A program made the position numbers and the translations under genes. Below the pieces are notes generated by a model that did not search any database, was not told where the DNA came from, and was given only the letters and a program-made list of their open reading frames with translations. Shown here in pieces: positions 16,638 to 44,300 of a DNA stretch of 64,000 nucleotides; the stretch's first letter is position 1, and every line of letters begins with the position of its first letter. Source of the stretch: Vairimorpha necatrix (lineage: Eukaryota). Location: the NCBI GenBank assembly GCA_036630325.1, contig CP142729.1, positions 1,054,001 through 1,118,000 on the forward strand, written 5' to 3'.

Positions 16638-16652
16638 ATCTTCAAGAAACTT

Positions 16653-19418: not shown

Positions 19419-20286
19419 AATGGGGGTAAAGAAAAAAAAAAGTATTTATAGTTTTTAAAATTAAAATTCCATTTTGGGAAAGAAGAAAACAAAAATGAGA
19501 AAATGATTTTTTATAAATAGCTTTGATATTAGTCTAAATATTAATTAATTGAGTTTGTTATTCAGTTGATAAATTTCTAATGTTTGTAAATCAACTTTAT
19601 TATGTTTGTTTCTTGTTTTGATTTTTGAATTTCCATTTCTGGTAGGAAGAATTAAAAAGGAGCAAATGTGATTTTTAGAAGTTAAGTATTATTATTGAAT
19701 CAACATAGCAGTGGTAAAGTTAATTCAGTAACAAATTTTAATCCAATTGAGTTAATTTCACACATTAGTAACAAATTTTTTCTACATTTTGTTTCATATT
19801 GTTTTTGTTTTCTTTTTCTAAAAGGAAGAAATTATAAAGGAGAAAATCATATTTCTAATAATTTCAAAAATGATTTATATACAAAATATAAATAATGTAT
19901 CTGGTCTAAAATTGTCTATAAAATACAGTGAAAGCATTTAATTTTGTTTTAAAACAAAAATTTTACCATTTTAAATTTTCTCTTTTTTTGAGTTTTAGGG
20001 GTAAAAAATTAAATAAAATTCTTTTATATATATGATTTATTTTATTCGCTTATCTTTTATAGTATTTTTCTTTGTACAACATCTCACCTATAATGCATAA
20101 AAAAGAAAACAAGTCAATTTAACATCTTAGAAGATGATTTTCAAAAAAAATTTAACAACAAGATACCGGACATTATAAATGTAAGTATGTTTTAAAAATT
20201 CTGTCAATTAAACAAAATATAAAGAACCATTGTAGTTCTAAAGAATTTTTATTCTATTTCCTAATGTCTTTAATACTAAAATTTAT

Positions 20287-25412: not shown

Positions 25413-26348
25413 TTTTATATTCTGTAATATGATTGACCCCAATTTATGATAAATAAAGACATGGCGAACACAAGAAACAAAAAGTCAGCTAGTGAGGACG
25501 GTGGTCAGGTGATCAGAACGATATGGAATGAGTTTAGTATTATTATGTTTGGATTGAGATTGAAGAAACAGAAAGAGATCGAATTGAAAGATATTTATAG
25601 TTTGAGTATAGAGATTTTGAGAAATTTTATGGTAGAATATGTGAGGAAGGAGGACGGAATTGAGAAAATTGAGAAAATTTTAGAAGAGATGTATAGAGTA
25701 GAGGAAGAGCAGAGAGGAGAGATTGAACAGCAGAGGCGTTGGGCTGTGAGAAGAAGAGTTATAAGATGTTATGAGTGTCGGAGAATGGGACATAAGAGTG
25801 ATAGATGTTATTACAATTATAAAGTAACAGAAAATAAAAAGGAGTACAATGCAGTCTACGAAGATGATAGTAGTGTTAGTGAGCGGGGGGGGGATATAGG
25901 ACGACAGCAGACGCGAAGAGGCAAAAGAAGCCTAAAAGTAGAGAACTTTCAAAAAGAAAAAATGAAGTTAGGCAGCTGGAAGCGTTTTGGACTTGAAGAA
26001 CTGAAGACAAAATATAGGAAAGTGTTTAGTTCAGGAGACGAGGTTATAAATATTGTACGATTGAGAAATGTAAGATAAAAACACAAGAGGGTGCTAAAGT
26101 AGTGGAGAAAGGGCAGTGTATACCTCAAGCATTAATGGAGAATACTGAAAATTTTATTAAAAGACTGGAAAAGAGGAAGGTAATAAGAAGGTCGAATTCG
26201 GAATGGAGAAATCCAAAAAGAACATTAAGAAAGCCAGATGGCGGAATAAGGTTAGTGAGTAATTTGATGGCCTTGAATGATTTGGTTGAAAAGGATCCTT
26301 ATGAGTTAGTAAATATAAGAGACATAATTAGGAATACACATGGTTAAA
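25413..26348 (+). mobile_element. 5' part of a Ty3/Gypsy element (short-LTR lineage, no protease), truncated at a SINE
   Basis: LTR ~25413-25461 ending ATGATAAATAAAGACA|TGGCGAACAC; gag 25446-26078 with CYECRRMGHKSDRC; RT start SEWRNP..KPDGGIRLV. Confidence 0.85.
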
Positions 26349-26349
26349 C

Positions 26350-27138
26350 TTTTTTTTTCTTGCAAGTAAAAGGTAGGAGAAACCTTACATGGGGACCAGA
26401 GGGATTTGGGTGTGATTCTCATCCAACTGGTACTGTGAGATTCTTACTCACTAAAACTCCCTCCATACAACTTGCCGGTGCAGCAAGCTCTGCCGTATTC
26501 ATTGGACTTTGGCTCCGGGAGAACACTTTCCATCTATACCTCAAATCGCGTCCAGAGTGACCTCACAGCGGATATACTTAACGGGCATGGTTATCTATAA
26601 CCCGAGGAGAGACATCATCGTACTGACTCAAAGGACCAAACAATCATCCGTATTGCACACACGGCTCCTTACACGACCACATCACCAGCCCGGCGTTTTT
26701 ATTGGGCTGCGTTGACCACCAGTCTCCCACTAGTTTCGGCACCGTGTTACAAAATCATGTAGGATAGGGACCACGAGACCTTCTATTGCCCTACTTCGTC
26801 TAGTCTCTTAGTTGGCTCCAGGATCCCACTCTAGAGTGCACCAGCCATGGGCTCCAACTAGGCCGTACCCATTAGATACTTTTATGTATCATTAAGTCAC
26901 CAAAGAGTGATACTGCTTTTTGGCCTTGAGGTGCGTTTCTACACTAGATGCTAATCCCCTTGTGGCTGGACACACACAAGTTTCATTGAATCAACTTAAT
27001 GATTATCGTGGACATTTTCATCATCTGAGTTGTTCCAACTGCATCATAGAAAGTAGAAACAATTTTGGTGCCCCTGGGAATCGAACCCAGCCATTGCTCA
27101 ATGGAAGCATTGCATTCAACCACTGTGCTAAGGGCACC
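26350..27138 (-). mobile_element. tRNA-derived SINE, best-preserved copy (~790 bp)
   Basis: tRNA-like head 27066-27138 with A box TAGCACAGTGG and B box GGTTCGATTCC; GC-rich body; A-tail at 26350; three other copies in the window. Confidence 0.9.
27066..27138 (-). ncRNA. tRNA-like cloverleaf / Pol III promoter heading the SINE (probably not a functional tRNA)
   Basis: Acceptor stem GGTGCCC/GGGCACC+A, T-stem CTGGG/CCCAG with TTCGATT loop, anticodon loop TCCATTG (C33 and T37 non-canonical). Confidence 0.8.
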
Positions 27139-28138
27139 TTAATTTTAATCCACTTCTTTTTCTATAATAGTGTTTTAAGTGGGACCGTAAATTTTCAATC
27201 TGATTTGTATGTCCTCCCTCGTTGTTTACAAACCCTATGCTATGATTTACTAACTCATGCTCAGATCCAAAATTGGCCACTGCTTTGGAGTATGATGTGT
27301 ATCCAACAGTAACAATAATAGTTCCAGGAAGTAAATGTTTTTTAAACGCTTCTAGTAAAGTTTCATGCTTTCTGTTAGGAATTAATGAAACAAAAAAATT
27401 AGTTCCATCACCTTCTACAACTCCTCCAAGTATCCACTGTATATTAGGAGTATCGTCGTGTAGAGATGACGGAATTTCAATCACTAAGCCATTGCATATT
27501 GCAGTTTCATCGACTTGTACCCTTGTGTTTTCTCCCCCTATCTGTTCTATATCGGAAGGAGTCTCGCTTATAATGTCAATTAGAATGTTTTAAAATTCAA
27601 TGTACGTGGACTCGGCTATTTTACAAAAATTGATAGCTTGATAATTTGAGTAAGAAAAGATCCAACAATATAAACACCTCAGAATCTTTTTGAATTCGAT
27701 AGTCAATTTATTAAATTTTGTGCTTTTTTCAAACTACATTTTCTTTTGCACTTTTTTATTTTACATCTGTACCCCTTCCCATCAATAAAGGAAGAAACAC
27801 TAGCAATTGACATGTTATCATGACATGATTTTGAGACACATGGAATGGTAGGCTTTATTATTCCCAATTCTACCAAAAGGGCAATTGCGAGATCATTATC
27901 TTGGAATATAGGATTCCAAGGATCGAGTTCTCCTACCTTTTCCAGTATTCTTCCTAACATGAAGGATAAGAAAAATGTGAAAGAAAAGTGAAAAAAATAC
28001 CATTGCTTTGAAAATCGCCCCCCCCCCCTAGAAAAAAAATATGCAAGAAAGTACAAAATCGAGAGGTTTTTTAATTTTAAAGAAATAAATTTTTTTTCTA
28101 TGCGCGTTTTACTAGGGGGCGATTTTCCTAGTAGCGCC
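27139..28138 (-). mobile_element. Merlin transposon, 3'-truncated at the SINE
   Basis: Terminus GGCGCTACTAGGAAAATCGCCCCC at 28138; transposase from ATG ~27960 reads VQVDETAI..QWILGGV..VNHSIGF..HTNQIEN with a frameshift and stop. Confidence 0.85.
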
Positions 28139-28760
28139 AAAACGACAATTATAGAAGTAATGTCCAAAGATAATAAGACAACATGGAAGAAATTGGGGCC
28201 AAGCACTTATAACAAAGTGGATAAGAGTGTTATCATTAAAGAAAAACTTATAAAGCCTCCATTGAAATGTACGATTTAATTAGTAAAGCTACTTGGATAA
28301 TTGGTGCAGTTGAAGAAAAAACCAGAAATCTAGTTCATAAAGTTTTATCCTAAATAAAAAAAAGAAACTTTCTTTGACTTTTCTCAAAAAATATTAATCC
28401 TAAGTCTGTAGTAAAAGCTGATGGGCACAGATCTTACCCATACGCTGTTGCTGGGATTGGTGGAGTACATGAAATTCTAATCATGAGGAAGAAGTTATTA
28501 TTGCTGATGGATACTACATTAATTCAATAGAGTTGAGAGTTTAATTGAAAACGGACATATAAACTAGGAAAGGAATGCCGTATCCAATGCCAGGGTATAT
28601 GGAAGAATATGTTTGGAGGGGGAGAAATATTAGACGCATGATTCTAAGGCTTATAAAGAAGCTTTTTGACTCTATTAAAGCTATTATATCAAAGATAATA
28701 ATCAAAAAAAAATTTAAAAGGATTCCAAACCCCCCACCCCCGGGAATAGGCCCTAAAGCC
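28139..28760 (+). mobile_element. Merlin transposon 3' remnant
   Basis: Degenerate VDKSVII..TWIIGAVEE..KADGHRSY..YMEEYVWR; candidate CC terminus at 28760. Confidence 0.7.
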
Positions 28761-29578
28761 GTATAGAAAGTAAACTAGTATTAAATTATATAGTTTTTAT
28801 GCATTTTCTGTTTAAAAGCATTTTAATGTGCCTCGTAGAACTTTATTCTGCAATATTTATTCTCTTTTTTATCAATACTTATTTGTTGTGGTGCACAATC
28901 TATAGTTTTCAAATCTCAAAAGCAAAAAAAAATATTTTTTAAGTTTTCAGTTAAATTGTATATACATATAAAATGTATTAAGTTATTTAGATTTAAATGT
29001 TTTCGTAGCAAATATACAAACAAAAATAATTTTTGATTATGTTGTTTATTGAATAAGACATTTAACATCGCTTGCGTCAAACCTTTACGTAATCTTCTGT
29101 TTCTGCTTAATAAATTATATTATAACTTAATTCTTCCTTTTAATTGCGTTATTTTTTATTTTGTAAGGTTATATAATACACGTAAAGATTATTAGGAGCT
29201 TTGGGCCACTGTGGTAAAAAGGGGCATTTAAGCAAATTTGTCATTTTTTCATCAATGATGAAACGTCTAGAGATAAGGCATATGAATAATTTTACAACAG
29301 CGATCGTGAAGAAGACTTTAAAGTGTTCAATATGCGATGCCGAAGCAAGAAAACCACAAAAAATAAGCTTCATTTCTATAAGTGTTTGGATAGCTTGTTT
29401 AATCAAAGTGCCATTCAAAAGATATGTGTTTGATTAAAAAAACAAGTGTTTTTTAAATTTTGTTAGTAATAAAACTATGGTCTGTAAAGTTAAACACCTC
29501 GCCATAAAAAAATCTCGTTTTGTTTATAAATAACAGACGTATGAGGGTGAATTGGGCCCTTAAATAGAAGTACTAACA

Positions 29579-32172
29579 CAGGGGTCGGCAACCTTTTGAA
29601 ATAAAGTATGAAATGTGCAATTTCAAAATCTTTAAACGAAAAACGGGCCCAAGCTCAAAAAATATTTAAGAAAATTAAAAAAAATGCTCTGGAAATCTTT
29701 TTAAAAAAAAAACAATTCGTAGCGAATAATACGATTATGATTTTTTTCAGTATTTTTTTGAAGATAGGCATCTTTAACAAGTAATAATTTTTTATATTAA
29801 AACGAAAATTATAATTGAATTTTTTTTTACAAGAGTTTTCTTAAGTGATTAAAAGAATCGAAAAAAAATAAATTTAATGGTTTTATATAGATTTAATAGT
29901 TATTGTTTTGACAAGAATGCGAAGCAAATTTCTTATTAATTACTCTGAAAAGAGGTTTAATTTGTTTTCGATTAATTCTCTAAAAAATATCAAAAAATAT
30001 ATCGTGTAGAGAAATACTAAGAAACAATACTTTTTAACGAGAAACTTGATTTTGCATGTCATCTGCAATTTGGTCATAATTTATGATATAAGATGAATTG
30101 GCAGCTCTTAAACAGTTTTCTTAAATTTTATCCGTAAGTTGTTGATGATTTGATTTTAAATACGTCATATTCGAAAAATGAGCTTCACAATTATTTGGTT
30201 CTAATATGAAAATATTTTGAGTGCACATTTTCTTAAAATAGGATAACTATTATCTGAAACCAACCAAAAGTCCTGTCTAAATAATGAGATTTTAGAAAAA
30301 TATCATTCTTCAAATTAATAATTTCGATTTTTACGTCGTCCATGTTAAATATATGAAAAAACTTAGAAATTTTTACTGGTAAATCAAAATCAAAAACATT
30401 AAAAGGATTAACAAAAAATGGAATTATTTCCTCTAATGATCGAAAATCATAAAATCTTTTAGAAAACTCAATCAGTAATAAATCTATTGCGCCTATGTAC
30501 GATGTAGGATCGAATCAAAAATACATAAATTAGTTTTTTATTATTAACTTAGTATTTTGAAAATGAGATAAGGATTTCTTCATTGAATGTATTTTAAAAA
30601 GTTCAACTTATTTGCAAAAGAATTAATTAAGCTTATCATATCTGCAATATTAGAATTCTTTTGTTGTAATTTTAAATTTAGTTTTTTAAATTTCATTGTG
30701 ATATCCGCTAAAAATCCAAAATCTAATAACCCACTTTTGTTTTCTAATTCTATATAAGTTTCATTTCTCATTGCAATAAATTCCTTTATTTGAAGTAAAA
30801 GCTTAATAAAGAGTTCAAGAACTTTGCCTCGACTAAGCCTTTTCACCTTTGTATGAAGAACTAAATCTTTAAAATTCTTTTTTTCAATTTAAAGCAAAAC
30901 AGCCTATGTGAGTTGCTTTGGCTCTTATCGAATTTATAATTCTAGTAACAATTAATAAAATATGATTAAATTTAACACTTTTTGGAAATAATATTTGTTG
31001 ATGAATTATACAGTGATATGAAATAAACTTTGGAAACAAAGAATCTTTTCTACATAAACCAATAAATCCGTTTTCTTTTCCGACCATTGCTCGTGCACCA
31101 TCGTAGTTATAAAAGAAAGTTTTTGAAGTGGTATATTTTTATCGACAATAAATTTTTTAAACAAAGAAAAAATGTCTTTTTGTTGTAAGAGCAGTTATAG
31201 GTAGAATTTTCAAGAATTTCTCTTTAGTTAAAAAGTCATCAAACACCGTTTTTTAGAAACAATTAGTTGTGCTGTGTCAAATACATCGGTAGATTTATCA
31301 AGCTGAAAAGGGAAATACATGCAATTTCTTAAGTCTTTATCTAATTATGATTCTAAATTATTAGCAATTAATTTTATTCTTCTTGATGCAGTTCTAGCTG
31401 ATACTGCAACATATTAATAGCTTTTAAAATTTTTGTCTTGTTACCATAATCTTAAAAAAAGAATCCACCGCTGTTATCATGGCCTCTTTTATAATTTCTG
31501 CATCAGTAAAGGGGGTTTTTCTTAACCAACAGATGCGCAACTTTTATTGAAGCTACAGTGGCCGTCTTCGAAAGCTCTTTTGGCTTTGTAAAATATCTCT
31601 GCTGTTTTAATTGCTGATTTTAAAGTATCAACTTACTTTTTCGCAGTTCGGACTTCAGTGGGTATTCAATATTTATACTTTCATGCAAACCATTAAAGTT
31701 CGTTCTAAATTATTTTTTTTGCAAATTGCAATGCTTTTGTTGCACAAAAAACAAACACACCTATCTTGAAATTCTATAAAGAATAAATCTTCTTCCCATG
31801 GATTATTGAATTAATAATTTCTTTTTTTTTTGAAGGTTCCATAAAGGGGCAAAAAATTTTATTGAATGTTGCGTTAGCATATTTTATGGCCTAATTATTG
31901 TCAAAATGAATTTTAAAGGATTTTTTAATTGGAATAAATAATTTTATTGTTATATCATCATATGTAAGAAAATTTTTGTTGAAAGGTCTTTTTGCGAAAC
32001 GGAAAGTACATCAGCTCCTTTTAATGTACACGCAATATTTAGCATTAAAAATGTAATTGACCAAATTTTTTTTAATAAAATAGAATATTAAATTTTTAAA
32101 GTTTTTTCTCAATGTGAAAAATAAATTCGGACGCACAAATTATTGAATAGGGCGCACCCGCGCCGACCCCTG
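29579..32172 (-). mobile_element. hAT DNA transposon (Buster/SPIN/GTF2IRD2-like), degenerate transposase ~30040-31842
   Basis: TIRs CAGGGGTCGGC at both ends; LDKSTDVFDTAQL, AMVGKENGFIG, YHCIIHQQ, LSRGKVL, FLADIT. No matching TSD. Confidence 0.88.
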
Positions 32173-33597
32173 GTCACGAGATTCTCGGCTTCTTCTTGTT
32201 CGAATTTCCTTTTGTCTAGACTCAAGGGTAATTTCGTTCACATACAACTTTAGGTACCGTTAGTGTATTTAGTGTTCCACTGTTGTTCTCGTTCCTTTGT
32301 GCTTAGATTCTCGTGTCTTATAATGGTCTATGAGCTTAGTAGTAAAGTTTGCTTCACTTTAGGGTTCTCATCAAAAGTTGATAGTTTAGTTCGCCTCGTG
32401 CTCAACGAAAAGTGGAGTTAATAATTTATTTTATATATCTATTGTCTGGCTTTATGATCTATTTTGACCCTGTGTATTATCATAAAGTCGCGGCATAAGA
32501 ATAATGCTATCATTCAGTGTTGGTATTACAAGCAATGTTATCTTGAATCGTTACCCACTGTTATTGCTTTTCGCTTCCAATGAATCGTTTATTACAGTAC
32601 TGTAAATTGCAGTTCAGAGTGTGAATCCTTTAACCTTACTTAGTTCCTCTCTGCTAACTAAGTTTTCAACAAAAAATGAGATAGATGCACCTGAATCATA
32701 AAGTTTCTGACTACGTCGCCAAAAAGATCCTTCGACCGTAGTGAAATTTGTGTATCTCAATATAGGTTCTGCTTCAACTAATGACACATTCTATCCTTCT
32801 TGTTTCTTGCAGTCCTTAAATAAGTGCTCACCTCTGAACTTGTAGCATACTAGCTTTCTTGGACTCTCATTCGTCCTTGTGGTATCTGTTCTTAAAGTCC
32901 TCATTTCATTTGGCCTACTTTGTTCAATTCACTGCTTTAAACTTTTGGATAAGTTTATGACTTCCCTCATAAATCTTTAAAAAAACGTCCCATGACGTTG
33001 CCTCTTCCATCTTTTCATTGAGTGATGGTAAAAAGGTCTATCCAGTTCCCTAATGATTCCCGACATGCTGATCATTGCTTTCTTGTTTAGCTTTACTAGG
33101 ATATAAATGAAGTCATCAATCCTCAAATCTTTGGGTCCGGGGTATAGTTTCTTGTAAAGCATTCTAGTATGGTTGGTTCCTTCCTGGAACTCTTCTTTCC
33201 CATACTTTCTTCCAAATATTTGTTTTTAATTTCATGGATTCTTTAACCTCGTCTTCAATCATTCTTCATACCTTCGGAGAGCTGATTCCCCTAGGTATCC
33301 CTATGTACAATTCAGTAATTTTATATCACTTCATTCTCCATCGAGGTATTTGAATTGAATAATTCGAATCCATGCATTCTTGCTTTGGGTTGCAATAAAT
33401 TTCACCATATGTTAGTCGATCTTCCTAACTTTTCTATTAGATGGCCCAATTCGTTAATTTCTAATAGTTGTGCCACTGTTACCTGAAGGAGAGCTGGTTA
33501 TTTAAGAAGGCATTAAATTTAAACTTGGGCTATATTTTATTAGAATATTTATTCTAGTAAAGATCATTTAAATAGTTTTAGTTTTGGATCTGTAACA
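32173..33597 (-). mobile_element. Truncated Ty3/Gypsy element (LTR-gag-protease), cut at the hAT
   Basis: LTR 33477-33597 (TGTTAC...GTAACA) followed by GTGGCACAAC; decayed knuckle CYKFRGEHLFKDC; protease YDSGAS. Confidence 0.7.
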
Positions 33598-33635
33598 AGT
33601 ATGTTTCAAATAATTATCTTTGTTTCAGAATATAG

Positions 33636-36600
33636 TTTGATATATTTGTATAATTTCTATCCCCCATTATGATAAATAAAGACATGGGGGCGATACCGAA
33701 TCGTCAATTTACAAGTGTGGACTGTGGTCTGAAGGCCAAAAAGCTATTAAAGGAAGTTAGAAGAATCATGTATAGGTTAGAGATGGAGGAAGTAGAATCC
33801 AGTTTGTGGAAACAGAGAATATTTATGGAAGGAAGTGAAGAAATAAAAAATTTCATGGTAGAAAGAATTAGTAAAGAGGACAAATATTATAAAATAATTG
33901 AGAAATTAGAGGAGGAAATATGTAGAGAAGAAAGAACTAAAAAAAAAGAAGAAGAAAATAGGAGAGAACTTATGGAGGTCATAGCCGAGAATGTTAGAGA
34001 AACTGTGAGAAAAGAAATTCAAGAGAAAGATTTAGTTTTAAGGAGTACAGTACAAGAAATAAGAAATAATAGGAATTGTTTTAATTGTGGTAAATTTGGC
34101 CATATGGCTAGGAACTGCTATGTAGGAAGGAACAATAATCAGGAAAATAATAAAAAGTTTAATAAGTACTAAAATTTAGACGAAAACCAAAGTTGTAGTA
34201 GCAGTAATGATAATAAATGATATAAACCAAGTGGAAAGACAAAATGAGTTAAGTTAAAGGAATGTAGTAATAGTGATAGAAGACAGAAAGAATATATGTT
34301 TGCAATAAAGAGACGAAAAGAAGATTACTCAAGAGGGAATTTACGTTGGAAGATCTAAAAGCGAAATATGAAGAAGTTTTTAAACAAGGAGATGAGGTTA
34401 TAAGTTATTGTACATTAGAGAAGTGTAAGAAAGATACTCCAGAGGGTAAGAAGATAGTCAGAAAGGGACAGACGATCCCACAGGCTTTTATAAAACAGAA
34501 AGAAGAATATAATCATGATTTAGAAAATAGAAAGATTATAAGAAGATCGTCATCTTAATTAACAAAACTCAATAAGAGCGATACTTAACCCCAAGGTATA
34601 GTAAGAGTAGTTAGTAACTTTATAAATTGAATGATTTAGTCGAGAAAGACCCGTATGAGCTAACGAATATGAGAGAAATAATAATAGCTACGCAAGGGTC
34701 GATAATATTTACTGTTGTTGATTGCAAAGAAGCATTTTACCATTTTGAAATCGAAGAAAAAGATAAACATAAGACGGCGTTTGAATTTAATAAAAAAGTT
34801 TACGAATGGAATAGTATGGTAATGGGATACAAAAATTCCCCACAGATACTACAGCGAACGATTAATAAGATTTTTGAGGATTTGCGAGGAAATGGTGTGG
34901 AGGTATTCATGGACGATATAGTAATACATGCTAACAATTAACGTAAACACGATATACTAGTTTTAGAGGTTTTAGAAAGAATTAGGAGATTAAATGAAAT
35001 TAAATAGTGGGAAAATACAGTTTAGACAAGCAGAAGTAAAACTATTAGTGTGACGCGGAATGGAACAGACATGACGGCCGACGAAATAAAAAAAATGATG
35101 CCTTGGAGTATCCAGATCCCAAAACTTTGACGGAATTGAGGAGATTCTAGGATTGACTGGATGGTTCAGACCATTTATGAAAGATTATGCCGGGTTGACG
35201 TTGAAAATGACAGATAGTTTGATGAAAAATGGCAATTTATGGAAATTAACGGAAGAGATGAAAGCGGAATTCACTGAAATGAAAAATGTGTTACGAAATA
35301 TGGGAAGATTAAGATTGCCGGACTATAATAAGGAGTTCATACTAAGAACAGACGCTAGCAATTTGAAATTGAGTGCGGTGTTACTTCAGAAGAATGAGAA
35401 TGGAGAATGGGTTGCTATACAATGGGCATCTAAAAAGTTAACACCGACAGAAGTAAGATATGGTACATCAGAAAAGGAAATGCTTGCGATATATTGGGCC
35501 ATTGATAAATTTAAATACGAGTTAAGAGGTAGGAAATTCAAGATATAAACGGATCACAAAGCACTGGTGGAGATAAGAAATAAACCGTTTTTTAATAATA
35601 ACAGAATAAATCGCTTAATCGAGAAGATACAGGAATATGATTTTATCGTGGAATATAAAAAACCTGATGAGATGATGGTAGCAGATGCGTTGAGTCGAAT
35701 AAATATGGAAGAGGATATTAAATAAATGAAAAATAAAGAGCGAACAATCAAGCAAACAGAAGGTAAATGGAAAGCAATATTGGCAATTTGACTCAGGACG
35801 TAAAGTTGAAATACCACCTGAGAATATAAGGAGACAATTAATCCAAGAATATCATGAAAAAGTAGGCCACAGATGCATGACAAGTGTTTATTATGCAATG
35901 AGAGAAGAATACTATTGGCCAGGAGTAAAAAAAGAAATAAACGAGGTTATAAAACAGTGTCAGAATTGTCAGATATATAACAGGAAAAATATGGGTGGTT
36001 GTGAATTTGTAGATACGTCGAGATACTTAGAGAAGGTTGCATTAGATTTGATAGACTTTAGAAATGAGAAGAAATATGTTTTAGTTGCTATCGATTATTT
36101 TACACGAAGAGTATGGGGAGTAGTTGTAAATAACAAGTCAAGTAATAATGTTGTTGGATTTTTAAAAAAATTATGTGAGCAAGGGAGGAAATCGGAAGAA
36201 ATTATTACAGATAACGGCAAAGAGTTTATTAACGTGGAATTTAGAAAATTTTGTAGAGATCTGGATATAATACACCGACAAGTAAGTATAGAAGCGCATA
36301 TAAGTAACGGAAGAGTAGGGCGTGTCATAGGAACTTTGAGAGAAAATATTTTAAAGTCGGATGCGAAAACCTTTGAATGTAAGTTGTATAAAAGTATCGA
36401 GATATATAATCAGAGCTATCATACAGGAATAAAATGTACACCAATAGAAGCGACTGAAGATAAAATTGGTGACGTAATGCTTGAAAATAGCCACATAAGG
36501 AAATATTGTAATAGGTTTAGAAAAAGGAAAAATTGAAAAATTTAGTAAAAGTCAATTGGTAAGAATAGCTAAACGAGAAAATTTGGCAGGTTTTAATAAG

Positions 36601-36822
36601 TATGAAAAACGAAAGATTTTTTGATACAGGGAATATTGTTGAAAAGTGTGGAAAAGATTCTTATATTGTAAAACTTAGTAATGGTAGGCTTGTGAAGAAG
36701 AGACATTATGACCCGAAGAGTATGCTTGGGGTAGATGTGAAAATTGGATGAGACTAACCGTCTTGAGGGGGGATGTGATATATTTGTATAATTTCTATCC
36801 CCCATTATGATAAATAAAGACA
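33636..36822 (+). mobile_element. Full-length Ty3/Gypsy element, 3187 bp, 49-bp LTRs, no protease; ORF disrupted
   Basis: LTRs 33636-33684 and 36774-36822 differ at 1 base; TSD tatag/tataa; PPT gagggggga; knuckle CFNCGKFGHMARNC; RT FMDD; RNase H TDAS; integrase ITDNGKEF. Confidence 0.93.
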
Positions 36823-37148
36823 TATAATTTAAGTTGGATTATTGGCGTAGACAACAAAGCCGGTAACAGAGTTTATGTTTTTTTCGTTATTTTTAATATA
36901 TAAATCAGAAGTTATGTGACATTTACATGCGTCATAAAAAATTATTCAAAAGAGCCGAAAGATAAAAATACTTTTTTTACTATAGTCTCGTTTCAATTCA
37001 CATTTATTATTATTTAGTAGCAATTAGGAGTTTGTTTTAAATATAAAGGGAATTCATGAATAAATATTAATGGTAAATAAAGTAAACAATGATCATAGAA
37101 TTCTTTTATTATAGATGATACTAAAAGTATTTTGGTATTGAATGTTTC

Positions 37149-40100
37149 TGTTACAGGATGATAATCTAGTTACTGAGATTATCCTGTAATTACTTTATTG
37201 TAGATACTTACCCAAAGTATCTACTGTAAAATATTTACTATAAATAATAAATAAATATTTTACCCATCTAAAAATATTATGAAAAGGAAGGAGAAACTTT
37301 ATTTAACAAATGGCGACAACGAAGATGATAAGGAACCAGTAGAGAAACAAAAGACAAGGAATACAGTGGAGATGTTAGAAAAACAATTAGCTGCAATGAA
37401 GATCAACATCAGGGGTACATACAACTTCAGAAAATTTGATGGTAAAAGGACGGAAGCAGAAGAGTTCTTACTACAATTTAAACCATTTAGAGAATCTTGG
37501 ACTGAAGAAGAATATTTTGGTTTTGTAGAAACTAATCTCACTGGAAAAGCCCGACTCTGGTTTGAAGGCTCAAGATATAATGTGTTTGAAAGTGTAGTCG
37601 AGTTTGAACAACATTTCTTAGAATACTTCAGTCCCGAAGAAGTTTCTGGCAACAGTAAATTGTTGAATATACTATTACATAAGAAGCTGAGAGAATGTAA
37701 TAACGAGATATTATGGTTAGAAATTTACTCGATACACAAAAACATTACTATACCACTAAAAGATGTTATTAATACGGTAGTTATGAATATACCAGTTGGG
37801 AATGCAAATCGATACAGGGATTGTAAGAGTTGGATGGCAGTTTTGAAATTGGCAGTTAAGATAGATTCTGAGAATGAGAGTAAAGAACAATCTAAGATGC
37901 AAATTAGCAAGAATAAATCGGAAGATGCGAGAAGTAGTTTTCAAAAGAAATTGATTAGCTGTTATAATTGCAAAGGTCAACATTATAGAAGTAATTGTCC
38001 AGAACTATTAAAGAACAAATCGAACAATAAAATACAAACCAATACGGGTAACAGAAATGATTATAAGAAGTGTTCAGATAAGAAACTGATGACATTAACA
38101 TGTAGTAGTAAAGCAGCCAATGTCCCTAGATTTTTGGTGAAAATTGGCGGAGGAAAAGTACCAGCACTACTAGACTATGGAGCTGACATTAATTATATTA
38201 GTTACGACCTGGTGAAGATGTTAAATATCCCAATAGATATGGAAAATAGAATTTCGGTCAATTTAGCAACTAGAAAAGATAGCTCGGTTGGCATGTTAAA
38301 AGCGTTATTGCGTGATAAAAATAATCAGCACGCATACGAAACAGAATTTGCGGTAATGGAAGATCTTAATGAAAATATACTCATCGGTAGCATAACAAGT
38401 AGACATTTAGGCATTAAAGTTCATTGGGAAGAAAATGAAATTGAAATCTTTAATGATGGAACAAGGCTCAAATTGGAAACAGAAGAGTACAGTTTAAAAT
38501 CAGTAATAAGCGAGGAAATACCCATGGAAATAGAGGCATTAGAATGCAAGTTTGGTGAACATGAAGAAGTCAATAAAAATATTAAGTACTTACTGTATAA
38601 ATATATGAAAGAATCCGATAATAAGAAAGCCCTACCTTTTAGACATGATATTAAACTTAAAGATCAAAGTAAAACTATATGTTGTAAACCATATAGAAGA
38701 AATCCGCAACAGAATCTCATAATTAAAAATAAAATAGATGAGATGTTACAGAATGGATTGATACGAGAGAGCACGAGTAATTATGTTTCCCCTGTAGTGC
38801 TTGCACCTAAAAAAGACGGTGGTATGAGAATGTGTATTGACTATAGAAAGTTGAATGAAAACACAATCAGTACGCCATACCCGATCCCTCACATGGATGA
38901 AGCAATAGATGCTATCCAAGGGACAGATATGTACTCTACTTTAGATTTGGAGATGGGTTACCATCAGATCGAAATGAACCCAAGAGATATTCATAAAACT
39001 GCATTTATTGTAAAGCAAGGTGTATATGAATGGACTAAGATGCCATTTGGCTTAGTCAATGCCCCTTTTACGTTTCAGAAGATTATGAATTGGATATTTA
39101 AAGATATACTTTGGAGGAAAGTAGTTGTATACCTTGATGATATTTTAATATTCTCAAGAGGGAAAGACAAACATGTCGACGATGTGAGAGAAGTCCTGGA
39201 AATTTTGTCAAAATTTGGACTCAGACTTAACATGAAGAAATGTGCATTCGCAGTGAGTAAAATTGATTTTTTAGGACACACTGTAGAGAATGGAGAACTT
39301 AAAATTAAATCGGACCAATTGGATAAGGTTAACACCCTAGAAAATCCAAAGAACGTCAGCGACTTAAGAAAACTTTTAGGATTTATAGTATATTTTAAAC
39401 GATTTATACCATCATATACCATGAAGGCTATGCCGTTATTAAAAAGGTTAAAGAAAGGTAATTTTATATTTGGAGACGAAGAAGAAAAGGCTTTAGAGCT
39501 CCTGAAACAAGAAATATTAAATGCCAAACCTTTACTTTTACCAGATATGAATAAGACATTTTATTTATATACGGATGCCTCAGACATTGGAATTGCGGGA
39601 GTACTTACACAATTTACAGATACGGGAAAAGAAATGCCTATAACCTGGATAAGTAGAACGCTAAATAGCGCCGAAATTAATTACACTACAACTGAGAAAG
39701 AGTGTTTAGCTATTGTATGGTCTATTGAAAAACTTAAAGTATATTTGTTTAACAATTTTATCATCAGGACAGATCATAGTTCCTTAATATGGTTAATGAA
39801 ACAGAAAACACCTATAGGAAGATTGGCAAGATGGATAATGAAACTGCAAAACTATAAATATGAAATCGAACATATAAAAGGTTCAGATAACGTTTTGGCT
39901 GATGTACTTTCACGTGGTGTATTAGAAAATAGCCAATTAAGAAAGTGTCAAACAGTGGTTAAAAATGAAGAAAGAATAAATGTTGAAGAAGACAATGAAA
40001 CAATAATAAAACTGATACAGAGAGCACACTTAGAGCTTGGCCATGGAGGTATAGATTCTACTATAATGTACATCAGAAATATTGCGAGTGTACCAAATAT

Positions 40101-41216
40101 AAGAAACAGAGTAGTTGAATACATTCGTAACTGTGAAACTTGTAGAAGATTTAGAGACAAGACGTTGCAAAATAATATTAGACGTGTGGAAATAAAAAGT
40201 TCGTTCTATATGATTGGGTTGGATATAGTTGGTCCTTTACCCCCAACAGACGGTGGAAATAAATTTATTCTGGTAGGAACAGACTACCTAACTAAATGGG
40301 CAGAAGTGAGAGCTTTAAAAAGAAAAGATGCGGAATCTGTAGCGAAATTTATTTATGAAGAATTTTTATTGAGACATGGACCTCCGGAAGTAATCTTGAC
40401 TGATCAAGGACTTGAGTTTAACAATAAAATCATAAAGAAACTGTGTTTAATGATAAATACTAGAAAGTCGTTTACAAGCGCCTACCATCCAAGATGTAAT
40501 GGACAAACGGAGAGACTAAACCGTACACTTATTGCAAGGTTGGCTAAGATATGCAATGGAAGATGGTCAGAGTGGGATATGTTCCTACCAATCGCGCTAT
40601 ACGCATATAGGATAACACCACTAATAAAATTCAAGAGTAGTCCTTTTAGATTGTTATATGGGAGAGAGCCTAAGGATATAACTACGGAGAAAGAAGATGG
40701 TGGAGCAGCATTTATAGAAGAAAACGATACACTTAAGAAGATCGATTTGTTACGGAAAAAGTTACACGAAAAGGTTATAGAAGATAGAAATAGAGACATA
40801 CAACGCGCGAATGATAGAGTTAAAGGCAAAAATATTCAAGTAGGAGATGCGGTTATGAAGAAAAAGGAATCATTTGAAAAACTGAATAAGCTTGATGATA
40901 AATGGACAGGACCTTATCTGGTAAGAAGAAAGTTTGACTCTGGTGGTTTCGAGATCGAGGACATGTATGGAAAACTATTTCGGTATAATGAAAAAGACTT
41001 ACAACTAATTGAGAATTCAGATCCCACGGATTGGGAGAGTTTAAAGAAAGGGAGTATGTTACAGGATGATAATCTAGTTACTGAGATTATCCTGTAATTA
41101 CTTTATTGTAGATACTTACCCAAAGTATCTACTGTAAAATATTTACTATAAATAATAAATAAATATTTTACCCATCTAAAAATATTATGAAAAGGAAGGA
41201 GAAACTTTATTTAACA
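37149..41216 (+). mobile_element. Intact Ty3/Gypsy LTR retrotransposon with identical 160-bp LTRs
   Basis: LTRs 37149-37308 and 41057-41216 (TG..CA); TSD GTTTC; PBS-like TGGCGACAAC; PPT aaagaaagggag. Confidence 0.97.
37279..41097 (+). CDS. Single-ORF Gag-Pol polyprotein (gag, CCHC, PR, RT, RNase H, IN)
   Basis: CYNCKGQHYRSNC; LLDYGAD; YLDD; TDASD; HHCC motif with D..TDQG..E; GPY. Starts in the 5' LTR and stops in the 3' LTR. Confidence 0.95.
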   Translation: MKRKEKLYLTNGDNEDDKEPVEKQKTRNTVEMLEKQLAAMKINIRGTYNFRKFDGKRTEAEEFLLQFKPFRESWTEEEYFGFVETNLTGKARLWFEGSRYNVFESVVEFEQHFLEYFSPEEVSGNSKLLNILLHKKLRECNNEILWLEIYSIHKNITIPLKDVINTVVMNIPVGNANRYRDCKSWMAVLKLAVKIDSENESKEQSKMQISKNKSEDARSSFQKKLISCYNCKGQHYRSNCPELLKNKSNNKIQTNTGNRNDYKKCSDKKLMTLTCSSKAANVPRFLVKIGGGKVPALLDYGADINYISYDLVKMLNIPIDMENRISVNLATRKDSSVGMLKALLRDKNNQHAYETEFAVMEDLNENILIGSITSRHLGIKVHWEENEIEIFNDGTRLKLETEEYSLKSVISEEIPMEIEALECKFGEHEEVNKNIKYLLYKYMKESDNKKALPFRHDIKLKDQSKTICCKPYRRNPQQNLIIKNKIDEMLQNGLIRESTSNYVSPVVLAPKKDGGMRMCIDYRKLNENTISTPYPIPHMDEAIDAIQGTDMYSTLDLEMGYHQIEMNPRDIHKTAFIVKQGVYEWTKMPFGLVNAPFTFQKIMNWIFKDILWRKVVVYLDDILIFSRGKDKHVDDVREVLEILSKFGLRLNMKKCAFAVSKIDFLGHTVENGELKIKSDQLDKVNTLENPKNVSDLRKLLGFIVYFKRFIPSYTMKAMPLLKRLKKGNFIFGDEEEKALELLKQEILNAKPLLLPDMNKTFYLYTDASDIGIAGVLTQFTDTGKEMPITWISRTLNSAEINYTTTEKECLAIVWSIEKLKVYLFNNFIIRTDHSSLIWLMKQKTPIGRLARWIMKLQNYKYEIEHIKGSDNVLADVLSRGVLENSQLRKCQTVVKNEERINVEEDNETIIKLIQRAHLELGHGGIDSTIMYIRNIASVPNIRNRVVEYIRNCETCRRFRDKTLQNNIRRVEIKSSFYMIGLDIVGPLPPTDGGNKFILVGTDYLTKWAEVRALKRKDAESVAKFIYEEFLLRHGPPEVILTDQGLEFNNKIIKKLCLMINTRKSFTSAYHPRCNGQTERLNRTLIARLAKICNGRWSEWDMFLPIALYAYRITPLIKFKSSPFRLLYGREPKDITTEKEDGGAAFIEENDTLKKIDLLRKKLHEKVIEDRNRDIQRANDRVKGKNIQVGDAVMKKKESFEKLNKLDDKWTGPYLVRRKFDSGGFEIEDMYGKLFRYNEKDLQLIENSDPTDWESLKKGSMLQDDNLVTEIIL

Positions 41217-41323: not shown

Positions 41324-44300
41324 TGTTGATATTTTTATATTTTTATATTTTTATTACCCCAATTTTTAAGATGAGTAAGGAAGTGGAGGAGAAGAATCTC
41401 ATAAATAAAATGGTGGAGAATATGAAAACAAAGCCAGTTGAAACTACCATCAAAAAGGAAAATTTGATGAGTGAATGTAGAAGGTTAGAAAATATGACCT
41501 TCTTCAGAGAAATGTGCGATGAGAGGAAAATCGAATATTTGATTGGAAGAGCTGACTACTTTATAGTAGATTGGCACCATGAGTTGATGGACACTAAAAG
41601 GAGGTGTTCGTTGGATTACGAAAAATGGAAAGAGTTGGCTAGAACCGAATTTGAAAAGAAAAGGCTTACTATAGGGGAGTTATATCGCATGGTACAACAA
41701 GATGAAGAAACTATACCAACGTTTATAGAAAGAGTTAGAGATTCAGCCAGAGAGTACAAACTTGCAAAAAAGGAAATCATTGATATAATTACAGCTGGAC
41801 TTAAAACAGGAATGGGCGATGTAAAAAGATTTTTATTGGCAAATAGTGATATTACAGATGAAAATCTAGAGACAATCAAGAAATTGGAAAGTGAGTGTAC
41901 AGCTGAATTACACCGAATTAATGATTTAAAATTGATGATTGAAAAAATTGATACTCTTAAATTTCAGGGCAAGAAAACAGTTAAATGTTACAACTGTAAT
42001 AGCTTAGGCCATTATGCTAGAGATTGTCGAAAGCCAAAGAGAAGTGAAAATCTTAGGAGAAACATTAATGAAATTACTGAAGAACTTAGAGATTTATTAA
42101 ATAAAGAAAATTCAGTTTACATTTGTGGAGAGAAGGTTCCAGTATTGTTTGATACAGGTGCAAATTATAATTTTATAAGTAGTGCTAGTGTAGCAAGATT
42201 CAACCTTTTAACACATAATAACACAAGGAAATTAAGATTTTGGACATGTTTGGAAGAATCATTTGTGATAAAAAGACATGTTATATTAAATTATACATAT
42301 AAAGGACATTTATATAGATCAAAGTTTTATATATTGCCAAAAGTACGAACTGAAAAAATCCTATTTGGTAGAGAAACATTAATTAGACTTAATAATATTG
42401 AGAAACTGAGTTATACATGTGAAATCAAAACACCTGAAGGCTCAAAAGTGATCGAAAAGATATATAATTTACCAAAGAAATTGGAAGCAGGAATTGAAAT
42501 TGCTATTAATAAATTATTAGAAAAGGGATATATACAAAACTCAAAATCAACGTGGGTTAGTAATTTGAGACCCGTGATAAAGCCAGATGGCACTGTAAGG
42601 GTTACAACCAATTTAATAGCACTTAATAGGTTGGTAGAACAGGATAATTATTCTTTACCAAGAATAGATGAAATCCTTTGTAATTTAAGAGACATGACAG
42701 TATTTTCTAAATTGGATTTGAAGGATGGATTTTTTCAAATTCCATTGGCACCGAAAGATAGATATAAAACGGCATTCAGATATAAACATAAATTATATGA
42801 GTGGAAAGTAATGCCACAGGGGTTTAAGAATGCTCCAGCAATATTTCAACGAAAAATGGATAAAGTTTTGAGAGATGAAATTGGTAAAAGTTGTTTCTGC
42901 TACGTAGATGATATTCTAATATTTGGAAAAACTGCAAAAGAGCATGACGAATCATATAATAGAATTCGAAAACTTTTACTAGAAAATGGTCTCAAAATCA
43001 ATGAGGAAAAGTGTGTATTTAGACAATCCGAAGTTCTATTCCTGGGATACAAAATTAAACACAACATCATTATTCCGCTCATAGATAAGATGCAAGCTAT
43101 TGAGGATTTAAAACCACCTAAGGACAAAAAACAGATTCAAGAATTTTTAGGTGCCATAAACTATTATAGAAAATTCATTAAAAACTGTTCAATTGTATGT
43201 GGTCCTTTGTATGAATTATTGAAAAATAAGAAAGAATTCAAATGGACGAATATAGAAGAGAACGCTTTTAAAGAAGTTAAAAGAATTTTTATTAATACGG
43301 TAGGACTATTTCAGCCAGATTGGTCAAAAGAATTTAAACTAGAGACCGACGCTTCAAATGAAGGTATAGCTGCAATACTCTCGCAAAATTTTGATGGAGA
43401 TGAAAAACCAATTGCATTTGCATCGAGAAGGTTATTAGAACATGAGATTAAATATAGTATCAGCGAAAAGGAATGTCTGGCCATGTTATGGGCAATGGAA
43501 CACTTTCGATATTTTTTATACGGTACACATTTTGAAATTATCACAGATCATAAAGCGTTAGAAGCATTAAATAAGGGTCAAATTAAGTCTCTGAGAATAC
43601 AAAGATGGCTAGATAGAATGTCATTGTTTAATTTTAGAATTAGATATAGACGAGGTAAAGAAATTCCTCACGTGGATTGCCTAAGTCGAAATTCTGGATT
43701 GGCAACAAACGACAAGAGATTAAATTTACACGAAGGATCGATAAATCAATGTGAAGAAATGGACGAAAAGAAAATGCTTCAGATGATTCGCGAAATTCAT
43801 AATGAGTTACTTCACCGTGGGATACAATCAGTAAAATATGAGATGTATAAAAGAGGTATTAATATAAAAAATTCACAAAAATTGATTAGAAAAATTATAG
43901 ATTCGTGTGAAACATGCAACGAGTACAATTCTAAAAAATCTAAACAACACATATTTGTTACCTCGTATGCAAAGGGAGAAAAAATTGCTATAGATATAAT
44001 AGGTCCAATAAACACACAATACATTATAACTGGGATTGATTATTTTACGAGAAAAGGATTTGCTAAAGTGATAAATAAGAGAAAAGATGAAAATGTAGTT
44101 AACTTTCTAAAAGAAATAAGTTCATCTATGCCTTTGAAGACATTGATCCTGGATCAATCGAAAGAAAATCTCAGTAGTAAGGTAAAAATGTTTTGCCAAG
44201 CAAATAAAATAGAATTACATTATACCACACCTTTCCATCACCAGTCAAATGGGCGTGTAGAAAGGTTTAATCGTACTTTACAAGATTTAATTTATAAAAA

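Follow-up and report, generated by a model that had tools for sequence, protein, structure and literature searches.

Positions 33636-36822 of the window, that is, of the whole 64-kb stretch of DNA analysed, hold an LTR retrotransposon (copy C) with LTRs of 49 nt, a G-rich polypurine tract and a primer-binding-like site (Table 1). It reads from a short helical N-terminal domain (the mini-Gag) through a CCHC knuckle and a hydrophilic linker into reverse transcriptase (RT), RNase H and integrase, and its Pfam content is zf-CCHC, RVT_1, RT_RNaseH_2, Integrase_H2C2 and rve. The copy is dead, with at least 11 stops and at least 6 frame changes; the RT region is interrupted by both, and the integrase, 61% identical to the relative P0001, has its final part in other frames. 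Copy C is, with good confidence, a dead member of a Ty3/Gypsy-type LTR retrotransposon clade that lacks a protease.

Table 1. Features of copy C and positions of the other copies and neighbouring elements in the window
Feature	Position	Strand	Remarks
Copy A	about 3249-7916	-	strongly decayed, longer; extra DNA between RNase H and integrase
Copy B	11079-14222	-	full length, decayed; LTRs about 48-50 nt, roughly 80% alike
Copy D	25413-26356	+	5' fragment: LTR, mini-Gag, knuckle, linker, start of RT
Copy C: 5' flank, putative target-site duplication	33631-33635	+	TATAG; 4/5 match to 36823-36827
5' LTR	33636-33684	+	49 nt, CA end; exact 48-nt repeat
Mini-Gag, helical N-terminal domain	33684-34073	+	~130 aa; ORF; helices modelled in the homologous region of copy D
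Primer-binding-like site	33685-33697	+	begins TGG directly after the LTR; also translated
CCHC zinc knuckle, nucleocapsid-like	34074-34118	+	zf-CCHC E=1.7e-05, residues 141-155 of the ORF starting at 33654
Hydrophilic linker	34119-34345	+	decayed here (stop and frame change); position expected for a protease
RT lead-in and reverse transcriptase	34346-35098	+	RVT_1 E=1.9e-18; tblastn with P0001 residues 209-470
RNase H and RNase H-integrase connection	35099-35729	+	RT_RNaseH_2 E=2e-28
Integrase: HHCC zinc domain, DDE core, C-terminal domain	35730-36751	+	Integrase_H2C2 E=6.4e-16, rve E=4.6e-15
Conserved 3' block	36750-36773	+	hairpin-like GAGAC..GTCTT, then polypurine tract GAGGGGGGA
3' LTR	36774-36822	+	49 nt, TG..CA
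3' flank, putative target-site duplication	36823-36827	+	TATAA
Neighbour N1	37149-41216		160-nt LTRs
Neighbour N2	41324-44778		87-nt LTRs

Termini and 5' region of copy C

The LTRs of copy C are identical at 48 of 49 positions, run from TG to CA and overlap an exact direct repeat of 48 nt (33638-33685 and 36776-36823); the limits given for the element by an earlier sequence-only reading agree with the LTR positions of Table 1. For the LTR start, the junctions of copies A and B and of the loci L003 and L005 served as the model: there the polypurine tract ends in GA right before TGT. The tract of copy C lies at 36765-36773, and the same 3' block precedes the 3' LTR at these four other junctions. 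LTR and target-site hallmarks of normal integration had also been claimed for this copy: the LTRs bear this out, and the target-site duplication is imperfect, a 4/5 match of this kind being weak in AT-rich DNA.

The 5' LTR holds a TATAAT-like box, an A/T-rich stretch with a CCCCC motif, an ATG and AATAAA. CCC-like motifs upstream of the ATG are a described microsporidian signal (PMC2803860). On its 3' side the LTR is directly adjoined by TGGGGGCGATACC. The primer-binding-like site is translated because the ATG of the ORF (33684-33686) straddles its junction with the LTR; residue 1 of P0001 aligns at 33684, and the relatives begin with M-G/A, matching the expectation from ATG followed by G.

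Other copies and neighbouring elements

Similarity among the four copies A-D is 64-78% at the DNA level and about 30-60% at the protein level. All four are dead, and the window contains no intact protease-less copy. The LTR, mini-Gag, knuckle and linker of copy D share one open frame of 213 aa, with 90 aa between the knuckle and the end of the ORF; the frame stays open to just before the lead-in cysteines, where it shifts. In copy B the knuckle, linker and RT lead-in lie in a single frame with one in-frame stop. The residues preceding the knuckle number about 130 in copy C and about 105-110 in copy D. The order of short Gag, knuckle, short linker and RT lead-in described by the sequence-only reading is seen in the window copies, none of the four has a D[ST]G motif in the knuckle-RT linker, and the linker of the decayed copy A is longer, as that reading had noted (about 120 aa, also without D[ST]G). 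No solo LTR was detected in the window with blastn-short. Contigs from X1-X4 are at most 811 nt long and 85-99% alike, and none spans the element. The 8 sequencing runs listed include no RNA run containing it.

Two intact elements, N1 and N2, lie directly beside copy C. A protease motif had been ascribed to these neighbours and to a third element near 32173. This holds for N2, which has DTG and an RVP_2 match, and in part for N1, which matches Asp_protease_2 but reads D-Y-G. It does not hold near 32173, where a protease motif scan was blank and where there is no sign of a retroelement: tblastn with 10 polyproteins against 28300-33640 at E<=1 returned a chance match at 0.71 alone.

Relatives of copy C and traits of the clade

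The integrase ORF of copy C gave 37 matches, 27 of them close (E<=5e-48). Among the close relatives, 11 public-database entries have intact ORFs of 976-1039 aa; they share the layout, lack a protease and come mostly from contigs of 3.05-3.5 kb. Intact-ORF copies had been proposed earlier as something to look for, and intact relatives do exist. Close relatives with a named source come from Vairimorpha necatrix, Nosema granulosis and V. apis; Nematocida sp. is the source of a deeper member (P0056), and all named members of the clade are microsporidian. A homology search with the Gag-linker ORF of copy D in 'longer' mode gave no match.

An element of the clade measures about 3.1 kb, and its one ORF codes for about 1000 aa. 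The LTRs are 39-50 nt long, run from TG to CA, and carry a host-type A/T-rich stretch with a CCC motif just upstream of an ATG as well as AATAAA; such micro-LTRs are a trait of the lineage. Throughout the clade the primer-binding-like site adjoins the LTR and is translated, a G-rich polypurine tract borders the 3' LTR, and the target duplication made on integration is 5 bp long. The metagenomic member L003 has a 41-nt repeat spaced 3124 nt apart, LTRs of 39 nt (TG..CA) and a perfect 5-bp target duplication (TTATA on both flanks), and the LTR of L005 is about 49 nt. The sole pair of loci with an intact ORF, L001 and L002, is 100% identical.

Alignment A1 shows no variation in the aspartates of the RT YxDD motif, in the catalytic residues of RNase H and integrase or in the HHCC ligands, and the four CCHC zinc ligands are invariant in both A1 and A2; zf-CCHC was matched in 10 of 14 relatives at E<=10. 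By Pfam, the order RT, RNase H and, last, integrase is found in the pieces of copy C and in all 14 relatives. The assignment to Ty3/Gypsy draws on matches to RT_RNaseH, RT_RNaseH_2 and Integrase_H2C2 and on the nesting of the clade among RVP_2- or chromodomain-bearing proteins, in a tree that includes no Copia or Bel/Pao outgroup. The TG..CA LTRs, primer-binding-like site, polypurine tract and target duplication (4-6 bp in Ty3/Gypsy elements) are Ty3/Gypsy traits as well, the LTRs being far shorter than usual.

Three types of primer-binding-like site occur in the clade: one starting TGGGGGCGA, one starting TGGCGAACA, and one with TGGC followed by a stretch encoding Thr/Ala-rich residues. Two sources of the primer were considered and rejected. 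Complementarity between LTR and primer-binding-like site, as in Tf1-like self-priming, is partial and was seen in copy C but not in B, D or L003. Nor do any of the sites match the single tRNA of the window (tRNA-Met, 27066-27138).

Absence of a protease

No protease family matches copy C at E<=0.1 (Pfam), and its linker contains neither D[ST]G nor any Pfam match. Three antisense ORFs checked for a hidden protease had no Pfam match at E<=1. Precomputed Pfam annotation lists a protease in none of the 27 close relatives; the distant P0029 and P0032 do have one. Fourteen members searched at E<=10 gave no RVP, RVP_2, gag-asp_proteas, Asp_protease or Asp_protease_2 among the 25 of 37 families listed, and P0039, P0044, P0056 and P0061 have no protease Pfam match at E<=0.01. 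All 15 rows labelled protease-bearing have protease-family matches at E<=0.02.

Knuckle and RT lie 50-128 aa apart in those 15 of the 27 relatives where both anchors are present, and the linkers span 50-189 aa in 16 protease-less members versus 120-136 aa in four protease-bearing ones. The earlier statement that there is too little room for a protease is borne out by three members with a linker of 50-51 aa and is not universal: a protease would fit into the linkers of P0010 (128 aa) and P0039 (189 aa), and in these two its absence is a Pfam result. A D[ST]G triplet occurs in the linker of two of 15 relatives (P0008 and P0010, in the latter 33 aa before the RT lead-in), unconserved and without hydrophobic context.

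When N-termini were compared by hhalign, the knuckle alone aligned (28 columns); the control, two protease-bearing groups, aligned with 97.9% probability over 232 columns. The 213-aa ORF of copy D was modelled with AlphaFold from a 19-row alignment (mean pLDDT 72.6), giving helices at residues 21-108 with pLDDT above 90, disorder at 134-166 and no strand of 3 or more residues; Foldseek returned no match to this model at E<=0.001. Residues 200-380 of N2, modelled from 9 alignment rows, formed a beta domain (pLDDT about 90), for which Foldseek gave 52 matches at E<=0.001 with Ddi1 and retroviral proteases at the top. The alignments under both models are shallow. The profile and structure checks proposed with the sequence-only reading, and the profile-profile comparison, have uncovered no retropepsin fold, with positive controls recovered, and no intact clade member with a protease between knuckle and RT was found. 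The clade has no aspartic protease between Gag and RT.

That a protease is present in the linker or the N-terminal domain, too diverged for its motif to be recognised, is largely refuted and now very improbable. Retropepsins are poorly detected by profiles (PMC3248453), most Pfam matches in protease-bearing relatives fall below the curated cut-offs, and two linkers reach at least 128 aa. However, three intact members have no more than 50-51 aa between knuckle and RT, and in the control Foldseek aligned about 95-110 columns to retropepsin chains of 99-130 residues; in the model the N-terminal domain is confidently all-helical and the linker disordered; and Foldseek recovered the N2 control from fewer alignment rows yet found nothing in copy D, just as hhalign found no match beyond the knuckle. 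Even less credit, next to none, is left for decay as the cause, in which dead copies of ordinary elements would have lost the protease by independent deletions. Such decay would fit the broken state of all four window copies, but it is refuted because intact relatives elsewhere share the layout; in addition, the region from knuckle to lead-in stays in one frame in copy B (one stop) and, to just before the lead-in cysteines, in copy D, and the protease-less proteins form one group in the tree.

Mini-Gag

Neither copy C nor the 14 relatives scanned match Retrotrans_gag or Ty3_capsid among the Pfam families listed, and in the mini-Gag region of copy C no Pfam family besides the knuckle was found. 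In the copy D model about 90 residues of the mini-Gag form a helical hairpin or bundle. A wide VIA-align search with it listed generic helical proteins (best Z 6.0) and no capsid or retropepsin, and Atlas gave weak leads (0.85-0.88) to knuckle and Gag clusters. As modelled, the clade appears to have no recognisable capsid domain.

Phylogeny and loss of the protease

The RT-RNase H-integrase tree comprises 35 rows and 980 columns, namely 34 proteins chosen from much larger match lists and the integrase of copy C, with the root assumed among the distant rows. All 19 protease-less proteins sampled fall on one side of a branch (UFBoot 98 / SH-aLRT 94), so that the monophyly which the sequence-only reading had put forward for testing is recovered; the integrase of copy C lies inside the group (100/100), and the sister of the group is a protease-bearing trio (99/97). 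One change suffices in 98% of 200 bootstrap trees. Because the protease-less proteins form one group nested among protease-bearing lineages, the loss is single and old. The tree and the intact protease-less relatives of ~1000 aa support the ancestral loss proposed at the outset: the protease disappeared a single time, where the clade began, in a compact protease-bearing ancestor like N2.

Proposed mode of replication

The best guess, held at not far short of an even chance, is that the polyprotein works without self-processing, with proteolysis in trans or by the host as its rival. The helical domain and the knuckle would hold the template RNA, and RT/RNase H and integrase would act either joined through flexible linkers or once cell proteases have cut the protein incidentally, in an RNP-style cycle instead of within a matured capsid. 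The further-reaching version, in which fully autonomous elements without proteolytic maturation or a capsid shell use one uncleaved protein to copy and integrate their own RNA as an RNP, is possible, with probability leaning against it.

Copy C itself probably arrived already broken, since it has at least 11 stops and 6 frame changes, yet its LTRs differ at one of 49 positions. About 6% of random substitutions create stops; by a rough calculation the stops of copy C imply ~6% divergence and ~5.7 expected LTR differences, and the probability of one or fewer is ~0.02. It was probably copied in trans by the proteins of intact relatives. Mobilisation in trans would mean that family proteins can act on other RNAs, which fits a particle-based cycle too.

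A semi-autonomous clade, with its own RT, RNase H and integrase and with its protease, perhaps also its capsid, supplied by elements like N1 and N2 or replaced by a host aspartic protease, is rather unlikely, though several observations point that way. N1 and N2 adjoin copy C, are intact with LTRs 100% identical and both have protease-family matches, while the protease-less copies of the window are all dead; copy C was seemingly copied when already broken, an instance of action in trans; and the exposed, disordered linker of the model would be an easy substrate. Against a helper of this kind, the linker has no conserved residue or motif and varies in length (50-189 aa), unlike a maintained specific cleavage site; the clade is old, extending from Nematocida to Nosema/Vairimorpha, and a helper would have been needed throughout; and the active-site position of N1 reads D-Y-G.

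Comparison with known systems

The protease counts as a defining and essential gene in LTR retrotransposons and retroviruses, and its presence is read by annotation pipelines as a mark of autonomy. The present clade has no protease and half a Gag, and its RT, RNase H and integrase have stayed intact across a divergence that extends from Nematocida to Nosema/Vairimorpha, which challenges the view that elements of this type depend on cleaving their own proteins in order to multiply. If the further-reaching version is true, the protease and capsid of Metaviridae and retroviruses would be dispensable for the core cycle, and the smallest LTR retroelement known would be one of ~3.1 kb with LTRs of 39-50 nt and an R region no longer than about 20 nt. 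If autonomous, the elements would set a lower bound on what an LTR element needs (length of LTR and R, capsid requirement) and would be a small natural system in which to study how an uncleaved polyprotein reverse-transcribes and integrates. The compaction of microsporidian genomes is seen to reach their own mobile elements as well. LTR finders with a minimum of ~100 bp would probably miss such elements, and the retrotransposon content of microsporidia may be under-counted.

Microsporidian Ty3/Gypsy elements encode a single polyprotein and form microsporidia-specific clades (PMC4202319, Parisot et al. 2014); the word 'protease' is absent from the main text of that paper. Like the present clade, the Nbr families of Nosema bombycis and the Parisot et al. 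groups come from this host phylum and have a single polyprotein, and N1 and N2 are of that general kind. 'Nearly all' N. bombycis elements encode Gag, protease, RT, RNase H and integrase (PMC2474625, citing Xu et al. 2006); the present clade differs from them in having no protease, a Gag of half the size and LTRs of 39-50 nt. No description of a protease-less Ty3/Gypsy element or of LTRs <85 bp was found in the literature searched, a body from which Xu et al. 2006 and the supplements of PMC4202319 are excluded.

Ty3 of Saccharomyces cerevisiae shares with the clade the order RT-RNase H-integrase, the CCHC nucleocapsid, TG..CA LTRs, a primer-binding site at the LTR, a polypurine tract and a 5-bp duplication. 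Ty3 measures about 5.4 kb and its LTRs about 340 bp; its capsid has two domains, its gag and pol occupy separate frames and its maturation requires the protease, whereas the clade has about 3.1 kb, one ORF and neither a protease nor a recognisable capsid fold. Tf1 of Schizosaccharomyces pombe resembles the clade in its one continuous Gag-Pol ORF, an arrangement in which structural and enzymatic parts are made in a 1:1 ratio. It differs in possessing a protease and in using its own 5' end as primer; the clade has no protease, and self-priming is not supported for it.

Very short LTRs are shared with SMART/FRetro129 and with TRIM and LARD elements; FRetro129, with LTRs of 85 bp, was called the smallest LTR retrotransposon in 2012 (PMC3281118). 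Those elements encode nothing, whereas the clade keeps intact RT, RNase H and integrase with LTRs about half as long. Membership in the non-autonomous class (TRIM, LARD, SMART) is ruled out by the intact ORFs of ~1000 aa, whose catalytic residues are invariant.

The hepadnavirus P protein, DIRS, Penelope and LINE ORF1p/ORF2p are examples of RT-based replication that does without maturation by proteolysis, and in its RNA-binding module of coiled coil and zinc knuckle the clade resembles some LINE ORF1 proteins. A DDE integrase together with LTRs, a primer-binding site and a polypurine tract is not known from any of these systems. Their likeness to the clade is one of mechanism, an analogy and not a homology.

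Copy C and the other elements of the window

Copy C, the element under study, is bounded by an exact 48-nt direct repeat at a spacing of 3138 nt. In the remaining copies, as in two relatives from metagenomes, the LTR junction consists of a G-rich tract with a final GA, followed by the TGT that opens the LTR; applied to copy C, this junction sets the LTRs at 33636-33684 and 36774-36822 (49 nt, CA at the end, 48/49 identical), in agreement with the sequence-only reading. The hallmarks of normal integration proposed in that reading hold for the LTRs, but the flanks TATAG and TATAA agree at only four of five positions. The polypurine tract GAGGGGGGA adjoins the 3' LTR, and a site starting with TGG directly follows the 5' LTR. 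The ORF pieces match the Pfam families zf-CCHC, RVT_1, RT_RNaseH_2, Integrase_H2C2 and rve, and no protease family at E<=0.1.

Copies A, B and D, reported earlier as diverged relatives, were found at the expected places. Together with copy C they are separate families of one lineage, since the copies resemble one another by only 64-78% at the DNA level and about 30-60% at the protein level. The CCHC zinc knuckle and the linker, i.e. the stretch from the knuckle to the RT lead-in, lie in one open frame in copy D, which ends at a frame shift just before the RT lead-in cysteines; in copy B knuckle, linker and RT lead-in share one frame with one stop. The linker of copy C is decayed (one stop, one frame change) and that of copy A is about 120 aa long. 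All four linkers lack a D[ST]G motif, as originally noted.

Compared with the database protein P0001, copy C contains at least 11 in-frame stops and at least 6 frame changes, while its LTRs differ at one position. As roughly 6% of substitutions placed at random in these genes yield stops, decay in place predicts about 5-6 LTR differences; the probability of one or fewer is roughly estimated at 0.02. Copy C was thus probably already broken when inserted, from a template mobilised in trans, or else its LTRs were homogenised. The LTRs of copy B are about 80% alike, matching the expectation for decay in place. Contigs of sequencing run X2 have a summed depth over the first ~450 nt (33642-34125) and last ~300 nt (36425-36908) of copy C that is about 50-fold higher than over the RT-IN interior (up to ~50,000 at the element ends versus 35-800 internally). 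This skew might stem from a derivative with an internal deletion that is amplified in the organism of X2; no bridging contig was present among those listed.

The window is AT-rich (G+C 22-39%) and carries intron-free housekeeping ORFs for transketolase, thymidine kinase, an M48 peptidase and Prp8. Among named proteins the transketolase is nearest to those of microsporidia (Nosema granulosis, 63%; Encephalitozoon and Ordospora, 56-58%). The left two thirds form a transposon graveyard with a Helitron, a MULE, an IS1595-like DDE gene and several Ty3/Gypsy elements. A protease motif had been attributed to three neighbours of copy C. It is present in N2 (active site DTG); the active-site triplet of N1 is D-Y-G in place of D-S/T-G, and no third protease-bearing element was found at 32173. 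N2 is the compact protease-bearing counterpart of the lineage of copy C; its start codon and an ACCCC motif both lie within the LTR.

Mobile elements and associated features of the window
Feature	Position	Strand	Remarks
Copy A	3249-7916	-	decayed
Copy B	11079-14222	-
Helitron Rep/helicase gene	15114-19445	-	Helitron_like_N and PIF1; two abutting ORFs (930 and 512 aa), one in-frame stop between
MULE transposase ORF (347 aa) and further putative transposase-like ORF fragments	21859-22902 and 30233-31138	-
Copy D	25413-26356	+	5' fragment
tRNA-Met gene	27066-27138	-	11-nt overlap with end of the DDE transposase ORF
IS1595/ISXO2-like DDE transposase ORF	27128-27589	-	end overlapped by tRNA-Met gene
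Copy C	33636-36822	+	element under study
N1	37149-41216		intact; 1280-aa Ty3/Gypsy polyprotein; identical 160-nt LTRs; protease-family match
N2	41324-44778		intact, 1121 aa, only 3.45 kb; identical 87-nt LTRs; protease-family match

Intact relatives

The 268-aa integrase ORF of copy C matched 37 longer proteins, 27 of which are close relatives (E<=5e-48; identity 39-61%). Those with a named source come from Vairimorpha necatrix, Nosema granulosis and V. apis. A precomputed protease Pfam assignment is absent from all 27, and 11 are 976-1039 aa long, mostly on contigs of 3.05-3.5 kb. Intact family members therefore exist, with the layout previously deduced from dead copies. The zinc ligands and the catalytic residues of all three enzymes (RT, RNase H, integrase) do not vary among 14 proteins that are 41-60% identical. 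A profile of 14 relatives, searched against 1.84 billion representatives, added the deeper protease-less proteins P0039, P0044, P0056 (Nematocida sp.) and P0061, and also retrieved compact protease-bearing relatives. Two metagenome contigs, L001 and L002, hold the same element (100% identity over 3101 nt); upstream, its ORF continues into an RNase H-like fragment that belongs to a different element, which suggests a nested insertion.

Search for a hidden protease

Five tests speak against a hidden protease in the protease-less clade that includes copy C. Among the 25 of 37 Pfam families listed for 14 aligned members at E<=10, the only retropepsin family was Peptidase_A17, matched by one member (E=0.047); a match to this family that could be placed, in P0061, lies in the RT/RH region (residues 506-615). 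Knuckle and RT lead-in are 50-128 aa apart in the 15 of 27 relatives with both anchors; the linker measures 50-189 aa in 16 clade members (50-51 aa in three), compared with 120-136 aa in four relatives that bear a protease. Two of the 15 linkers (P0008 and P0010) contain a D[ST]G triplet, unconserved and in a context that is not protease-like. In profile-profile comparison of N-termini, two protease-bearing groups match each other over 232 columns (97.9% probability), whereas between protease-less and protease-bearing groups only the knuckle aligns, or 54 columns including the preceding helix.

The structure predicted for the 213-aa ORF of copy D (19 alignment rows, mean pLDDT 72.6) comprises helices at residues 21-108 (pLDDT >90), the knuckle and disorder at 134-166; it contains no beta strand as long as three residues and gave no Foldseek match at E<=0.001. 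As a positive control, residues 200-380 of N2 were modelled from only 9 rows as a beta domain (pLDDT ~90), with 52 Foldseek matches at E<=0.001 headed by Ddi1 and retroviral proteases. Downstream of RT box A there is likewise no room for an additional domain, since the protease-less proteins are no longer there than N1 or N2 (~685 aa to the C-terminus vs 658 and 720). Three antisense ORFs gave no Pfam match at E<=1.

Phylogeny and origin of the loss

A tree was calculated with IQ-TREE from 35 rows and 980 columns, comprising 19 protease-less and 15 protease-bearing proteins, the latter all labelled by Pfam matches at E<=0.02, and the integrase of copy C. Rows were picked from the matches of this integrase and of the profile search; partial proteins (P0005, 6, 11, 14, 15, 17, 18, 20, 22, 23, 26, 27), plant proteins (P0031, 33, 35-37) and every giant gene model with multiple copies were excluded. 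Columns less than 60% filled were dropped, which removed the protease columns.

One branch separates all protease-less rows (UFBoot 98, SH-aLRT 94). A trio of protease-bearing rows is sister to them (99/97); the other protease-bearing groups, including N2, lie outside. Of 200 bootstrap trees, 98% require just one change. If the root is placed among the distant rows, the grouping supports a single, ancient loss of the protease, as had been proposed from the window copies. The deeper branches P0061 and P0044 have a longer N-terminal region without a knuckle; the crown group, with copy C inside (100/100), has the mini-Gag, a short helical N-terminal domain plus knuckle.

Element ends

Micro-LTRs are a trait of the lineage. 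The metagenomic locus L003 (52% protein identity) has a 41-nt repeat 3124 nt apart, LTRs of 39 nt (TG..CA), TTATA at both flanks as a 5-bp duplication, the G-rich tract and the TGG site; the LTR of L005 is about 49 nt. In B, C, D, L003 and L005 an A/T-rich stretch, CCC and ATG follow one another within ~25 nt of LTR, a build shared by the 87-nt LTR of N2. An AATAAA-like signal occurs in all LTRs examined; those of the decayed copy A are without clear CCC. We infer that the LTR is hardly more than a host-type core promoter and poly(A) signal, which leaves R and U5 ~20 nt or fewer. The ATG of the ORF spans the LTR/PBS junction, so relatives start with M-G or M-A. At least three PBS types occur. 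Directly 5' of the polypurine tract, a block of ~15 nt (GAGAC, a 3-5 nt loop, GTCTT) is found in five of five elements (C 36750-36764, A, B, L003, L005); it could form a short hairpin and is also coding (integrase C-terminus).

Proposed replication

The elements would be autonomous in carrying out reverse transcription and integration. As they have a single ORF without a protease, Pol and the RNA-binding module at the N-terminus would be synthesised 1:1 and stay joined by the disordered linker, whose sequence and length both vary. The most economical reading, put forward tentatively, is a cis-acting RNP cycle. The main rival, cleavage of the polyprotein by the protease of a co-resident element or of the host, is considered somewhat less likely: intact N1 and N2 adjoin copy C, which was apparently mobilised in trans, but the linker is without any conserved motif and the clade is old.

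Comparison with published elements

The presence of protease-less copies is confirmed, and loss in an ancestor is supported. The literature searched gave no account of Ty3/Gypsy elements without a protease or of LTRs as short as 39-50 nt; if priority holds against earlier literature, the lineage is of interest to retroelement researchers. Ty3/Gypsy groups that are specific to microsporidia and encode a single polyprotein have been described, in a main text without any mention of a protease (PMC4202319). According to a 2008 summary of Xu et al. 2006, 'nearly all' N. bombycis elements have Gag, protease, RT, RNase H and integrase (PMC2474625); given this wording, exceptions may already have been seen. 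The 85-bp LTRs of FRetro129 were termed the smallest in 2012 (PMC3281118).
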